A stretch of 64,000 nt of DNA from a virus, in the IMG/VR virus record IMGVR_UViG_3300021963_000083, positions 20,656 through 84,655 of that record; one strand, given 5' to 3'. The notes below the pieces were generated by a model. That model did not search any database and was not told where the DNA came from. It was given only the letters and a program-made list of their open reading frames with translations. The translations under genes were made by a program, and so were the position numbers. Positions 55,408 to 62,097 of this stretch are shown piece after piece. Position 1 is the stretch's first letter, and the number at the start of each line of letters is the position of its first letter.

Positions 55408-55607
55408 CACCTTAGTCGGTGTTTTTACCCAAAGTGGTACGTGCGGAGTAGTCTGAGCGTGTTAGGAATCAACTAGTCTAACAACCCCCATACCATACCC
55501 GCCCCCTCCTGTCAAGCATTATTTTTATTTTATTTTTTTTATTTTTTATATTGACAAGGCAAGCGGTCATTGGTATAAGGGTGCATCAAGACAGAAGGAC
55601 TAAGACT

Positions 55608-55790
55608 ATGGTTGAATATGTTGTTTCTCTTATCGTTTACTTTGCATCTATCGCTGGCGTGTTTGTGTGCTTGTGGGGCATGGTTCAGATGCGGGATGAC
55701 CGCAAGATGGTTTGGTTTTTTACTCTGACCTCATTTGTTTTTATGTTTACAATGTGGCTTGGCGTTACTATGTTTCAGAATATGGCATAA
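55608..55790 (+). CDS. 60-aa two-TM pre-early membrane protein
   Basis: Promoter TTGACA(55551)-17-TATAAG, AAGGA RBS, two hydrophobic helices. Confidence 0.6.
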   Translation: MVEYVVSLIVYFASIAGVFVCLWGMVQMRDDRKMVWFFTLTSFVFMFTMWLGVTMFQNMA

Positions 55791-55795
55791 GGAAA

Positions 55796-55999
55796 ATGGA
55801 CATGGAATTTGAATCTTGGCTTGCCGCCGTTGACAAGGCTTTCAATCGCATTACTGGCATGAGCCGCGATTGTTGGCCTGACCAAGATTATTGGTCAATG
55901 TATGATGCAGGCGACACGCCAACGGAAGCGGCCATTGCCGCAATCGAAAATGAATATGGCGAGGAAGGCTTAGAAGCCTTCGGCCTTCAACTAGCATAG
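55796..55999 (+). CDS. Small acidic pre-early protein
   Basis: MDMEFESWLAAVD...PD.DY...YD.G.TP..AA. Confidence 0.6.
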   Translation: MDMEFESWLAAVDKAFNRITGMSRDCWPDQDYWSMYDAGDTPTEAAIAAIENEYGEEGLEAFGLQLA

Positions 56000-56012
56000 A
56001 AGGGAAAGAATA

Positions 56013-56153
56013 ATGGTTACGCCAATACAAGCGGCCCCAATGGGCAAGACCTATCGCGTATCATCCGAAAGCGCATGGCCCTTGCGAGGACTGGACGGCA
56101 AGACCTTTGCCGAACGGCGCAAAGAAAAAGACAATGGCCCTAGCAAAAGCTAG
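56013..56153 (+). CDS. 46-aa hypothetical pre-early protein
   Basis: MVTPIQAAPMGKTYRVSSESAWPLRGLDGKTFAERRKE...; purine-rich RBS; hairpin at its end. Confidence 0.45.
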   Translation: MVTPIQAAPMGKTYRVSSESAWPLRGLDGKTFAERRKEKDNGPSKS

Positions 56154-56309
56154 GGCCTATTGGCGCCAAAAATTTTGCACGCTACCTTAAATGTAGCACG
56201 TGCGACTAGGGCCTGTCAATAGCATTTATTTTTTATTTTTGCGATTTTTTCTGTTGACACTATGGCAAGGCATTGGTAAAAGAGTGCATCAAGACGGAAG
56301 GAAAAACAA

Positions 56310-56792
56310 ATGGCTTATGTAATTTTTGACCTCGACGGCACTGTGATTGATTCGACGCATCGCCAAGCGACTAAGGCTGATGGCTCGCTTGACCTTGACC
56401 ATTGGATTGAGCGCAACAAGCCAGAAATGATTATGCGCGATTCGCTTTTGCCATTGTCTCGCGTTATGCGTATCATCAAAGCAAACGGCCATAAGGTTAT
56501 CGTTTGCACTGCCCGCTCTTATCAAATTGCTGATGAGGAATTTTTGGCAATGCATGGCCTTGACTATGACGTTTATTTGTCACGCGCTGCTAAAGGCGAT
56601 ATGCGTGACGATGCCAGCCTTAAGGTTCAATTGCTTAATGATTACTTCACTGGCCTAGGCTTTCGGTCGGTTGAAGCTGCCAAGCCAATGATGTTTGACG
56701 ATAACCTAAAGGTTATTGATGCAATGATTGCAATTGGCGTAACTTGCTATGATGCAAAATATGCTAACCACCGCCTTGCAAAGCGCGCTTAA
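56310..56792 (+). CDS. HAD-superfamily phosphatase (T5 Dmp / PNK-phosphatase-like)
   Basis: FDLDGT, CTAR, K, FDDN..V motifs; own promoter and terminator (56795-56830). Confidence 0.85.
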   Translation: MAYVIFDLDGTVIDSTHRQATKADGSLDLDHWIERNKPEMIMRDSLLPLSRVMRIIKANGHKVIVCTARSYQIADEEFLAMHGLDYDVYLSRAAKGDMRDDASLKVQLLNDYFTGLGFRSVEAAKPMMFDDNLKVIDAMIAIGVTCYDAKYANHRLAKRA

Positions 56793-57096
56793 GGAATAGG
56801 CGGGAGCAATCCCGCCTATTTTTTTTTTATTTTTCCTATTGACAAGGCCAGGCCCACTATGGTATAATGGGCTGATGCCCAAAATTCGCGCCAAAAGCGC
56901 CGAAAATTTTGCCCGCTACTACCATTATAGCACGCGCGGCTGGGTGCTGTCAATAGGGAAAATGAAAAAATGCGATGAACGGTTCGTCGCATTTTTTGGC
57001 GTTTGGTGTTTTTTTCTCTTGCAAGCTTTGCCGATTGCGTCTAATAATGGTTCATCAAGAGGGGATGGGCCTCTCCTGATAACGAAAGAAAATTTT

Positions 57097-57408
57097 ATGA
57101 CTAAGGTTGTTGAAAAGAATTACTCTGAAGCCCAAGAATCGGCTTTGCTTGCGGCTGGCGTTATTGATAACGCAAAGGCTTTGGAATTTGCCGAAAAATT
57201 CGGCAAGGATGTTCGCTCGATTCGCGCTAAGGCGGTTCGCATGGGCATTTATAAGGCACAGCCCAAGGTTTCCAAGACTGGCGGTAAAATCGAATCCAAG
57301 GAAGCGATTGCTGCCGATATTTCGGAAATCATTGGCAAGAGCCTTGAAGGTCTGGAAAAGGCCCCTAAGCTGGTTCTGCAAATTTTGCGGGAAAAGCTTT
57401 CGGCTTAA
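57097..57408 (+). CDS. A2: T5 A2/D3-like DNA-binding protein, copy 1
   Basis: NYSE.QE ... GK.VRSIRAK.VR.G.Y...K..K.G...K..I..DI...L.GLEKAPK. Confidence 0.7.
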   Translation: MTKVVEKNYSEAQESALLAAGVIDNAKALEFAEKFGKDVRSIRAKAVRMGIYKAQPKVSKTGGKIESKEAIAADISEIIGKSLEGLEKAPKLVLQILREKLSA

Positions 57409-57695
57409 CCGATAAAATCTAAAGCCTAACGGCGGGGAGAAATCCCCGCCATTTTTTTTTGTTTTTTGCAATTTTTCCTATTGACAAGGCCCGACCAATA
57501 TGGTATAATGGGGTGATGCGCTGAAGGCGCCAAAGCACCGATAGGTGCGCCGAAATTATACCAGATTTCCGCGTGCCTGTCAAGCAAAAAAATTCGATTG
57601 AACAAACTTTTTTAATCGGTTTTTTCCATCAATAAATCGCTTGCAATAGGGGCAGGGATTGGCTATAAAGAGGCATGGAAACGAAAGGAAACGAA

Positions 57696-60063: not shown

Positions 60064-60375
60064 ATGACTAAGGAAGTTGTGAAGAACTACTCGGAAGCGC
60101 AAGAAGCCGAAATGCTGGCTGCTGGCGTTATCGACAACGACGCTGCGATTGAGTTCGCTGCGAAGTTCGGTAAGGACGTTCGTTCTATCCGCGCTAAGGC
60201 TGTCCGTATGGGCATCTACAAAGCTAAGGACAAGGTGTCCAAGAGCGGTGCTCCTATTGAGCGCAAGGAAGAAATTGTTGCGGACATCGCAGCAATCATC
60301 GGCAAGAACCTCGACGGCCTCGAAAAGGCTCCTAAGCAGGTTCTCGTTGCGTTGCGTACTCGCTTGAGTGCGTAA
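60064..60375 (+). CDS. A2: T5 A2/D3-like DNA-binding protein, copy 2
   Basis: 103 aa, 77/103 identical to copy 1 by hand alignment; promoter TTGACT(60004)-17-TATAAT. Confidence 0.7.
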   Translation: MTKEVVKNYSEAQEAEMLAAGVIDNDAAIEFAAKFGKDVRSIRAKAVRMGIYKAKDKVSKSGAPIERKEEIVADIAAIIGKNLDGLEKAPKQVLVALRTRLSA

Positions 60376-60519
60376 CTAATAGGAAGGGGCGAGAGGGCAG
60401 ATAGCTTTCACACCCCCTTCCGAAAGCCTACAGTACACGACCGGCTCCCGCCGAGTACCAGTTATTCACCCTAGGTTGTATATAACTGAGTCTCCACACG
60501 GATCGGCTAAGTACGAAAT

Positions 60520-60556
60520 AAGCCTGCTACCAGCCCATCTGGTAGCAGGCTTTTTT
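60520..60556 (+). terminator. Intrinsic terminator
   Basis: AAGCCTGCTACCAG-CCCAT-CTGGTAGCAGGCTT-TTTT. Confidence 0.85.
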
Positions 60557-60568
60557 GCGTCCGCCTGC

Positions 60569-60790
60569 GGCGCCAAAATTATAGTGGAAAATCGACGTGA
60601 AGTCAAGACAAATTTTTAGCAGCCCTGCGCGTTCCACCGCGCAAACTCGCACCCGCCCAGGGGCGCCGATTATAGTGGCAAATCAATGCAAAGTCAAGTC
60701 AAATTTTTTAAGCCCTGCCACATCTACACCCAGAAACATCCAAATCGCCAAAAGGCGCCGATTATAGTGGCAAATCAACACCCTGTCAAG
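60569..60790 (-). repeat. Three ~92-bp-period units, each a leftward consensus promoter ending in GGCGCC
   Basis: GGCGCC..ATTATAGTGG.AAATC......(A/T)GTCAAG at 60569, 60662, 60754. Confidence 0.8.
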
Positions 60791-60886
60791 TACAATTTTT
60801 ACCAAGCCTCGCGACTCCGTCGCAAATTGGTCTTGACTTGCGAGGCCAAACGCAGTATAGTGTATCTTCAACCTAAGGAGAGAACC

Positions 60887-61147
60887 ATGCGTAAGATTTT
60901 CATTCTAGATGACATTGAAGTAGTGCTCTATCAGAGTGCTATTGCTATTCCTGAAATTTTCCTTAACTACGACGTAAATAAGATCGAGCTTCACGTCGAC
61001 GACGTAGATCGTCCGACTGTTTGGGAGATCGTATTCGTCGAGTCTGACGATAGTGAAGTAGTAATCGGTGAAATCACCCTTATGGAGGATTTTTCTGCGT
61101 ACTTTGACCTATTTGACGATGATGAGGGAATTATCGACGAAAGTTGA
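60887..61147 (+). CDS. 86-aa highly acidic protein
   Basis: AAGGAG RBS, promoter TTGACT(60833)-17-TATAGT, terminator 61172-61204. Confidence 0.65.
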   Translation: MRKIFILDDIEVVLYQSAIAIPEIFLNYDVNKIELHVDDVDRPTVWEIVFVESDDSEVVIGEITLMEDFSAYFDLFDDDEGIIDES

Positions 61148-61324
61148 GATAAACCCAGATAAGTTGACATAAAGCCCGTTGGACTAGTTCCGGCGGGCTT
61201 TTTTGTTGTCTAAAATCAACTTGGCGCCGACAAAAACGAAGATTTTTTACGTGCGGCGGACCTTTTGCACACTTTTGCGTACTTTTTCAACCTCAGGGGA
61301 AGTTTATTCCAAACCACAGCAAGC

Positions 61325-62000
61325 AGACAAAAAAATAGCCCACTACAGTTTAGTAGCAGGCTAACGATCTTCGTCGTAATTCTAGTAGTATTTAAGTGTA
61401 ATAGTAACGCTACGGCGGGCTAGAGTGGGCTGACGCGCGACTAGTATGGTATGGACAAGTTTGCGTTGAAAGGGTTATAAACCAGTATAAATTTAAAAAT
61501 AAGTAGGAACAGTTGTTGACCAACAAAGAGGCTTAAAATGACCTTTGTAGCTTGTTTGTATTGCAAATACAATTGTAGCCGTTAAATCGGATATTATACT
61601 GTTTTAGTTGAGCATAAACAGTTGTCTCAAACTTTGTTGCGTGTTTGGTGTATCTTCGATACTTATTGGTGAACTTCGTTCGGTTACTTGTTCTTAGGTT
61701 GATGCTTTAGTTTGAGACTTCGTCTCTGTGTGCTTGCTTTATATTAAACAGTATAAAATAGATTCTTAAAATCTTCTCCGGTACTGTTGTAGAAAGACTA
61801 CCGCTTACGCTCCCGTCTTTCTGACAACAACCCTGGAGGTTAAACTAGTGTGTAATAAACTGTATAAGTAAATATAAGCTATTACCAACTAACTATGTTA
61901 GTATAATATCATGACTTTTGCGAAAAGTCAAGAGTTATTTTTCTAAGGTATGGTTTAAACTTATTGTATCCTAGCGTTTGGAAACTTCGTTTCCCTGGTT
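61325..62000 (-). other. Non-coding structured element with multiple C-GAA-G triloop hairpins (candidate origin or ncRNA)
   Basis: No ORF >=60 aa; hairpins at 61650, 61671, 61714, 61980; long-range stems; leftward promoter and terminator bracket it. Confidence 0.5.
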
Positions 62001-62097
62001 GGGCTGTGATGAACTCTGTATAACACGGCCTGGGCTTGAAGTCAAGTGCTAAATTTATGTCTTGACTTTAGCTTGTTTATGTAGTATAGTGTCAACT

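Follow-up and report, generated by a model that had tools for sequence, protein, structure and literature searches.

Between positions 55487 and 62045 of a 64-kb stretch of viral DNA (hereafter the window: positions 20,656 to 84,655, the final part, of the 84,655-bp contig IMGVR_UViG_3300021963_000083 in IMG/VR), a dense series of leftward (minus-strand) sigma70-like promoters is predicted, none of which is followed by a gene. Judged by their sequence, these are genuine and conserved matches to the sigma70 consensus, far more numerous than chance would provide. They appear to constitute one half of a repeated intergenic cassette, which lies in a block of pre-early type in T5-like phages of an uncultured freshwater clade. 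From the anatomy, enrichment, conservation, and phasing of these units, which are observations, we infer every functional step of a reading that is put forward tentatively, as plausible rather than probable: the leftward units would be cis-acting counter-promoters, and their RNA mainly a by-product. Coordinates are window positions unless stated otherwise.

Promoters were scored by their matches to TTGACA-N16-18-TATAAT (maximum 12), and each is named by the position of the first base of its −35 box. A preliminary description, made from the sequence, had listed thirteen leftward sigma70-like promoters; the consensus scan bears this out for 11 of them, with nine at 11–12/12 (56953, 57583, 58367, 59499, 59778, 59874, 60606, 60697, and 60789) and two at 10/12, while 55515 and 62045 are weak. 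The 6,559 bp contain nine leftward matches of at least 11/12; 1000 first-order Markov simulations gave 0.056 on average and never more than 1, and the remaining 78,096 bp of the genome contain three, so that the enrichment over the rest of the genome that had been proposed as a check is present. The GCGCC tag reported for ten cases was recovered as GGCGC within ~35 nt past the −10 box at 10 of the 13 sites, and the ~92-bp period of three units as spacings of 91 and 92 bp. The predicted leftward promoters are the following:

55487–55515, minus strand: degenerate leftward promoter (TTGACA-17-TATGGG; −10 box 3/6), the left-boundary unit, with no GGCGC tag.
56190–56219, minus strand: leftward promoter of type A (TTGACA-18-TACATT, 10/12), followed by the leader GTAGCG..AAAATTTTTGGCGCC.
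56924–56953, minus strand: leftward promoter of type A, 12/12, face-to-face with rightward promoter 56839.
57555–57583, minus strand: leftward promoter, 12/12, with GGCGC immediately past the −10 box, face-to-face with rightward promoter 57481.
58338–58367, minus strand: leftward promoter of type A, 11/12, aimed at the hairpin 58282–58307.
59471–59499, minus strand: leftward promoter, 11/12, face-to-face with rightward promoter 59409, with 33 bp between the −10 boxes.
59750–59778, minus strand: leftward promoter, 12/12, with the tag TGGCGC.
59846–59874, minus strand: leftward promoter, 11/12, with the tag TTTGGCGC and orthologues in the related loci L003, L004, L045, and L047.
60578–60789, minus strand: three tandem leftward promoters with −35 boxes at 60606, 60697, and 60789 (11, 11, and 12 of 12), each with GGCGCC past the −10 box.
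61903–61931, minus strand: leftward promoter, 10/12 (TATTAT), untagged, facing 560 nt of non-coding DNA and then a minus-strand terminator at 61336–61363.
62017–62045, minus strand: the claimed thirteenth promoter, weak (−10 box TATACA, final T missing) and absent from the consensus-scan list.

The tagged units are of two kinds. Type A has a conserved leader (GTAGCG..AAAATTTT.GGCGCC) that places the GGCGCC box ~22 nt downstream; in type B the box lies 0–4 nt past the −10 box. Auxiliary elements are also present, namely a TGn extended −10 in 70 of 97 tagged leftward promoters and an A+T fraction upstream of 0.70 vs. 0.55 in the background.

No ATG-initiated open reading frame (ORF) begins within 150 nt of any predicted leftward start. 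Only two Shine–Dalgarno-like candidates were found, with TTG or GTG starts, the longer of which is an antisense frame of a real plus-strand gene; in the relatives described below, candidate leftward frames are either broken by stops or are antisense frames of real plus-strand genes. No conserved leftward ORF follows any of the promoters. The claim that there is no gene to transcribe therefore stands, since the small minus-strand ORFs that might have explained the promoters are broken or antisense frames.

Relatives were fetched from IMG/VR and metagenomes with the phosphatase and exonuclease-like proteins of the region (98% down to 45% protein identity), giving 35 loci (195,451 bp) after removal of known duplicate loci, other redundancy being kept. 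These loci contain 126 leftward promoters of at least 11/12, 98 of them with GGCGC within 35 nt; because the loci are related by descent, such counts, and the phasing considered below, are not independent. The degenerate promoter 55515 has orthologues at 11–12/12 in L045, L047, L004, and L003, with −10 boxes TATAAT, TATGAT, or TATACT. In the face-to-face pairs of the window and of L001 and L003–L007 (L005 repeats L004), both hexamers keep the consensus while spacers and centers diverge, and the 33-bp spacing of the 59409/59499 pair is also found in L003 and L004. Over 54 nt, the promoter region of 61931 shares 91% identity with the distant locus L007. A complete 115-kb relative has three perfect matches on the reverse strand, all of them within its pre-early region. 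Retention of the consensus while spacers diverge suggests that the leftward promoters are under selection. The type A leader motif, searched in viral contigs, gave four stretches, three of which are contigs of relatives already known and one a chance match. Among the genomes of 185,579 species, 21 stretches matched the motif; tblastx showed no similarity between any of them and the window, and hence no host counterpart emerged; by eye these stretches are coding-like, with no promoter upstream.

In its A/T-flanked form (WWWNGGCGC), the box is present in 13 minus-strand copies in the 84,655-bp genome, all within 56171–60763, and in seven plus-strand copies, two of them in the region; 8 of the 11 genomic copies of GGCGCC lie within the region. 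One copy of the box, at 59340, stands downstream of a rightward promoter and is not associated with a strong leftward one. Within a lineage the box is constant while hairpin sequences vary. In a sister lineage (L053, 1508–4182; L055, 1349–1474), the face-to-face and backward promoters are kept and GGTCGGA-N2-4-TCCGACC replaces GGCGCC in the same place. The box is probably a protein site or an escape brake, and the protein site is favored because one lineage swaps the box for another palindrome. The A2-like small protein that is encoded twice in the block (see below) would be a candidate binder. The suggestion that the GCGCC boxes are T5-type nick sites is disfavored, as the T5 major-nick consensus (R/GCGCRGG, as given in PMC3517423) has no match in the 6.6-kb region and five matches elsewhere in the window.

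Hairpins are the second recurrent partner of the leftward promoters. A hairpin of at least 6 bp starts within 40 nt of the −10 box in 83 of 123 leftward promoters; for rightward promoters the count is 17 of 73, and for random windows 60 of 210 (29%). In 60 of the 83 cases the box lies between the −10 box and the hairpin. Most of these hairpins (63 of 83) have no U tract (fewer than five T in the 9 nt past the stem, on either strand), and most of the hairpins faced by leftward units thus lack the form of an intrinsic terminator, a G+C hairpin directly followed by a U tract; the conserved feature would be geometry rather than a classical terminator. Among 71 distinct longer hairpins, a plus-side T-run is found in 23, mostly those situated 80–100 nt away in face-to-face cassettes. 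From left to right, the conserved unit consists of a gene end, a hairpin, 1–5 nt, GGCGCC, and the A/T of the leftward −10 box. Promoter 56219 is aimed at the hairpin 56136–56157, which has a U-rich tail on the minus strand, and the first promoter of the triple array (60606) abuts the hairpin 60520–60552. In the minimal cassettes of lineage L057, ~10 nt separate the −10 box from the hairpin and the gene promoter lies 13–24 bp behind. The hairpins of the window are the following:

56136–56157, no strand assigned: hairpin at the end of ORF 56013–56153, followed on the plus strand by TATTGGCGCC and A/T, with no U tract.
56791–56824, no strand assigned: terminator hairpin that follows the dmp-like gene and has a plus-strand T-run.
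58282–58307, no strand assigned: hairpin after ORF 57998–58276, followed on the plus strand by TAGCGCCGAAAATTTT.
60520–60552, no strand assigned: terminator hairpin that follows A2-like gene 2 and is faced by the triple leftward array.

The leftward promoters are also arranged regularly with respect to two classes of predicted rightward promoters, class II promoters, which face them, and class I promoters, which are gene-proximal and lie back-to-back with them:

56839–56868, plus strand: class II promoter, 12/12, facing 56953.
57481–57509, plus strand: class II promoter, 12/12, facing 57583.
59409–59437, plus strand: class II promoter, 12/12, facing 59499.
55551–55579, plus strand: class I promoter, TTGACA-17-TATAAG followed by ..CATCAAGAC.
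56254–56282, plus strand: class I promoter (TAAAAG) of the dmp-like gene, separated by 34 bp from leftward promoter 56219.
57019–57048, plus strand: class I promoter for A2-like gene 1, with a 65-bp gap from 56953.
57641–57669, plus strand: class I promoter (TATAAA), with a 57-bp gap from 57583.
58434–58462, plus strand: class I promoter (TAAAAG), with a 66-bp gap from 58367.
60833–60861, plus strand: rightward promoter (TATAGT), with a 43-bp gap from 60789.

The face-to-face arrangement of class II and leftward promoters, with 33–55 bp between −10 boxes, occurs three times in the window and recurs in relatives. Class I promoters of the CATCAA type share a start box, CATCAAGA (e.g., 55551–55579, 56254–56282, and 58434–58462, and in related loci), and the −10 box of class I ends in G (TATAAG, TAAAAG, or TACAAG) in 35 of 53 cases, where the usual T is nearly invariant. 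A leftward −35 box lies 1–75 bp upstream of 38 of the 53 class I promoters, and for several of the 15 unpaired ones the partner is degenerate or slightly farther off; 55515, for example, is back-to-back with 55551 across a 35-bp gap. The −35/−35 gaps cluster at 13, 24, 33–35, 43–46, 54–57, and 64–66 bp, and the 34-bp gap of the 56254 promoter is found again at its orthologue (L034, 5910). Of 49 back-to-back pairs, 45 fall within 1.5 bp of 13+10.5k, for which 34% of possible gaps qualify, and the vector strength of the gaps is highest at a period of 10.5 bp (0.79). The helical phasing is suggestive; no probability is attached to it because the pairs share descent.

The genome in which the block resides was placed by its proteins. 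The large ones match family A DNA polymerase, ribonucleotide reductase, tape-measure protein, tail fibers, a fused protease-capsid protein, portal, and large terminase (TerL); TerL is 48% identical to that of T5-like Vibrio phages (Demerecviridae), and nothing closer was found in the phage collection, which identifies the genome, on its protein sequences, as that of a distant T5-like siphophage. Near and distant DNA searches of the phage collection returned zero matches, a tRNA search of the window found none, and no overlap was found between the ends of the 84,655-bp contig. The phage is present in freshwater, estuarine, and marine metagenomes from 16 studies. Rightward genes run from ~55.6 kb of the window across the contig end/start to 37 kb of the genome, and the structural genes between the rightward blocks are leftward; this orientation map puts the 6.6-kb promoter block (7.7% of the contig) at the junction of late and early modules. 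By comparison with the T5 map, this looks like the position of T5's collapsed terminal repeat, and from its map position the block may be a first-entering terminal repeat. Its principal genes are the following:

56310–56792, plus strand: HAD-family phosphatase (dmp-like; PNKP phosphatase domain), with relatives in T5-like Vibrio phages.
57097–57408, plus strand: A2-like small helical protein, copy 1 (103 aa).
60064–60375, plus strand: A2-like small helical protein, copy 2 (103 aa), with the highest cover in RNA-library contigs.

With its HAD/dmp-like phosphatase, duplicated small protein, and late/early position, the region looks like a pre-early block. The pre-early T5-like context of the preliminary description accordingly holds as regards the distant T5-like phage, the late/early position, and the HAD phosphatase, and less well as regards A2, to which the likeness is weak (BLASTP E 0.053 vs. 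T5 A2; PHROG "DNA binding protein" E 5e-4). The A2-like protein is the best conserved of the block (75–83% identity in relatives in which the phosphatase is at 60–65%) and is duplicated in at least four genomes. Its predicted model is helical (mean pLDDT 87), and a fold search against the PDB gave a best E of 0.34 and no significant DNA-binding match; the weak PDB rows are mostly three-helix DNA-binding domains and were discounted as evidence. The block also contains small ORFs and a possible DEDD-type exonuclease, which has a weak PHROG match (E 7e-4) to the exonuclease subunit of a polymerase and matches no Pfam family.

Selection appears to have acted on binding signals, box, hairpin position, and phase but not on the RNA, which argues for a role of polymerase on DNA rather than a role of RNA. 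As a counter-promoter, the leftward unit would capture polymerase maximally by means of an A/T-rich upstream tract, a consensus −35 box, and a usually TG-extended −10 box. Polymerase departing from it would collide head-on at the hairpin with rightward polymerase, and this collision would insulate each small gene through collision-assisted termination or attenuation. It has been reported that head-on collision at a stem-loop stops read-through between convergent Escherichia coli genes (bioRxiv 10.1101/2022.10.23.513370). On the other side of the unit, the back-to-back docked polymerase might help or gate the neighboring weakened (TATAAG) promoter. The leftward RNA, of tens to ~240 nt, would be mainly a by-product; its form appears dispensable, with only ~10 nt left before the hairpin in the minimal cassettes of lineage L057, product lengths and 3′ ends being variable. 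GGCGCC could serve as an escape brake or discriminator, or as an operator through which a phage protein would switch all units at once. Discriminators and initial sequences rich in G+C can shorten the life of the open complex or hinder escape, and effects of the initial sequence on escape are known at the T5 promoter N25.

Several points weigh against the counter-promoter reading. The RNA support consists of strandless contigs, and promoter activity is deduced from sequence. If a consensus antisense promoter were to release polymerase efficiently, it would throttle the upstream gene, so that poor escape has to be assumed; and the reading does not account for the confinement of the device to this block. 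Its status as first-entering terminal repeat derives from map position alone. Six cassettes of the window already have T-runs or partly U-rich tails, so that collisions are not obviously needed there. Counted by unique gap value, only 13 of 17 gaps are in phase, and the related loci make both counts and phasing non-independent events. Finally, a strictly defined class I partner is found for only 31 of 94 tagged leftward promoters, others standing in tandem arrays and some alone, and promoter coupling therefore cannot be the sole role.

A broader version of the same idea, which we consider doubtful, is that of a clade-wide polymerase-docking device, phased back-to-back with weakened TATAAG promoters and aimed at the GC box and hairpin. 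It is equally open to doubt whether, under such a docking device, the pre-early genes on injected, linear, unsupercoiled DNA would be switched on, insulated, and later shut off by polymerase contacts and collisions together with a lineage-specific box-binding protein. If true, it would amount to promoter control without a gene-encoded activator at the promoter. How phages of the T5 type run and silence their first-injected genes is unsettled, and this clade uses an architecture that T5 lacks.

The RNA data consist of assembled strandless contigs from four metatranscriptomes, which give neither strand nor ends. Their cover of the block is patchy, which argues against plain DNA carry-over, and is highest over A2-like gene 2 (60026–60429) and the non-coding stretch 61453–61878, the latter being covered by contigs of all four runs. 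This cover fits a transcript from 61931 to the minus-strand terminator at 61336–61363, and 61336–61931 is probably transcribed into a non-coding RNA of ~560 nt. The same promoter carries a palindrome with 8-bp arms that spans its −35 box. For the tagged units the RNA data carry no information: some leftward-unit stretches have no cover (e.g., bins 59010–59677 and 57340–57673), from which nothing follows, and a short contig over unit 58367 (X18) is not a leftward transcript alone, as it extends beyond the promoter on both sides. A search of Rfam (E ≤ 1) gave five sub-threshold matches and no family reaching threshold; the best-placed of them, BjrC68 at 56125–56177, minus strand, with 21 bits vs. 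a gathering score of 39, was rejected.

It is nevertheless conceivable, if rather unlikely, that the RNA is the product, in the form of small or antisense RNAs (a 5′ tag plus a stabilizing hairpin) that act in cis on class II 5′ ends or upstream genes, or in trans, for example in timing the pre-early shut-off. The 27-nt leader of type A is nearly invariant in 10 copies from five genomes and is followed by hairpins that differ in sequence, and unit 56219 has a good terminator on the minus strand at its end, from which an RNA of ~60 nt would result. Since most hairpins have no U tract, transcripts could also run on antisense into the upstream genes, and the ~560-nt non-coding stretch downstream of 61931 fits an RNA product too. 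Yet types A and B share only GGCGC(C) at the RNA level, and the box of type B may precede the start site; the minimal units of L057 would yield RNAs of ~35 nt consisting of the hairpin only. A leader hairpin (GCG..AAAA/UUUU..CGC) is predicted in some folds and was rejected, as its right arm is constant, its left arm freely variable, and the alignment without compensating changes. The lengths, sequences, and 3′ ends of the leftward products are not conserved, no Rfam family matches, and the matches of the leader motif in species' genomes are chance ones, unrelated in sequence to the window. Judged as small-RNA genes, the units possess a promoter, their 3′ ends are unconserved, and their hairpins are variable but common to plus-strand genes.

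Polymerase might instead simply be parked on the first-entering DNA. It could then serve as a sink or a passive ratchet, anchor the DNA or stop its injection, or shield the free end from exonucleases and from restriction enzymes that translocate. Promoters of maximal affinity on both strands, face-to-face with 33–55 bp between −10 boxes, would suit this purpose, as would the placement of the block (7.7% of the contig) between late and early modules as in T5's terminal repeat; moreover, collided polymerases are reported not to be released (10.1101/2022.10.23.513370). We regard parking as improbable in any of these forms. The sink put forward earlier is quantitatively implausible, because one DNA copy with ~25 promoters could hardly titrate the polymerase of a cell, and the pulling ratchet would, by analogy with the T5 map, have leftward promoters that point away from the DNA still to enter and so could not draw it in. 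A shield would need neither the link to hairpins nor the phased gene promoters. No better odds are given to the view that a strand-specific DNA site (an A2-like binding site, a nick site, or a Chi-like site) is the functional element and the promoters are secondary. All 13 flank-oriented genomic copies are on one strand within 4.6 kb, the copy at 59340 has no strong leftward promoter and follows a rightward one, in another lineage a different palindrome replaces the box, and the A2-like protein is duplicated, best conserved (75–83%), and helical. However, a leftward −35 box is found no more than 50 nt from 12 of the 13 copies, so their orientation may follow that of the promoter; GGCGCC is itself palindromic; the T5 nick consensus occurs elsewhere but not here; and the A2-like fold has no significant DNA-binding match (best E 0.34). 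Least credit is given to cassettes that are mainly recombination scaffolds with the leftward promoter as a passenger. The cassettes (90–140 bp, 72–88% alike) do flank each small gene, one gene is duplicated, relatives differ in gene content, and assemblies break inside cassettes; such a composition, an AT-rich tract with a strong sigma70-like promoter and a stem-loop, is that of the PeSLs (PMC2839356). A passenger would not, though, retain 11–12/12 matches, the TG extension, the box, and the phasing across lineages at 45–65% protein identity. Breaks of this kind are seen at the end of L002, the start of L006, and the end of L001, and one contig starts exactly at TTGACA.

The nearest known counterparts are the PeSL cassettes of T4-type myoviruses (Arbiol et al., 2010, PMC2839356; Comeau et al., 2014, PMC4122927), which are likewise repeated intergenic cassettes of ~100 bp with an A/T tract, a very strong sigma70-like promoter, and a stem-loop, and which border small genes of unknown function within an early region of high plasticity. 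The composite by which PeSLs are recognized (A/T tract, sigma70-like promoter, and stem-loop, repeated between small genes) is found here as well. The cassettes of this clade differ in having a second, gene-less promoter oriented the opposite way, a GC palindromic box between promoter and hairpin, and phasing; in that most hairpins lack U tracts; and in residing in a T5-like siphovirus (with T5-like terminase, tape-measure, and tail-fiber genes) rather than a T4-type myovirus. Possible indirect signs of recombination of the PeSL kind are the duplicated gene and the breaks of assemblies within cassettes.

In coliphage 186, too, sigma70 promoters reportedly converge at a distance of a few tens of bp, but there pR and pL both drive genes and form one lysis-lysogeny switch; here, one partner is gene-less, and the unit occurs up to three times per genome in a phage of virulent type. 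The collision-dependent termination described by Wang et al. (10.1101/2022.10.23.513370) similarly has a stem-loop between converging polymerases, but the opposing polymerase in that account comes from a convergent gene, whereas by analogy it would come here from a gene-less promoter 6–40 nt from the hairpin. The back-to-back pairs may be compared with leu-500, a −10-defective promoter that is activated by divergent transcription. Both have a −10-weakened promoter back-to-back with a strong divergent one; in the present case the phasing suggests a static, face-specific relation rather than diffusing supercoils, and the leftward RNAs would be short and untranslated.

To the pre-early repeat of T5 (NC_005859; Davison, 10.1101/866236) the block is similar in late/early position, dmp-type HAD phosphatase, small A2-like protein (weakly), and long non-coding DNA beside early genes. 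T5 differs in having no dense array of gene-less opposite-strand promoters, and no A1-sized gene was seen in the window's block. The box is not strand-biased in T5 either. A scan of 12 kb of T5 gave eight matches of at least 10/12, with no tag and no array; two of them, 114 minus and 10879 minus, have no annotated gene downstream, and neither has the box. In the literature searched, outside which lie the T5-like ORF and repeat supplements of 10.1101/866236, gene-less opposite-strand promoters in T5-like pre-early regions were not found, and the word "promoter" is absent from the available text of that preprint. What is new here is the gene-less opposing promoter with GC box and phasing in a T5-like siphovirus; promoter/stem-loop cassettes and the interplay of convergent or divergent promoters are of known kinds. 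If the counter-promoters work as proposed, they would provide compact natural insulation of genes by programmed polymerase collisions, as well as promoter help or gating by a phased neighboring polymerase. Because their signals are plain sigma70 ones, the counter-promoters would be directly testable in E. coli and reusable as a genetic part.

Two further plus-strand candidates for genes were rejected. The 124-aa ORF 59321–59695 is broken in relatives; its first part (59321–59390, downstream of rightward promoter 59294) contains GGCGCC and GTTC-N7-GTTC and is ~91% conserved with L003 at the level of the translated frame, and its conservation in an otherwise broken frame points to a conserved non-coding element. 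Leaderless ORFs at class II starts (such as the ATG at +1 of 56875) were dismissed, as the ATG is missing in several copies and one reads ATG-CGC-TGA. The 5′ leader of A2-like gene 1 (57053–57082; CATCAAGAGGGGATGGGCCTCTC..GATAA, with a short hairpin) is nearly letter-perfect in five loci, with two variable positions, and the intergenic DNA around it is divergent in the same loci. The first gene past the block (62098–62694) encodes a pentapeptide-repeat protein (Pfam E 6e-17), a fold often associated with DNA mimicry.

The five matches to R/GCGCRGG in the window all read AGCGCAGG and lie on the minus strand in late genes (23915–23922, 24308–24315, 28141–28148, 28587–28594, and 44551–44558); each has A/T before it, and 2.56 matches are expected by chance. 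By their sequence these are candidate nick sites of the T5 type, or a codon effect.

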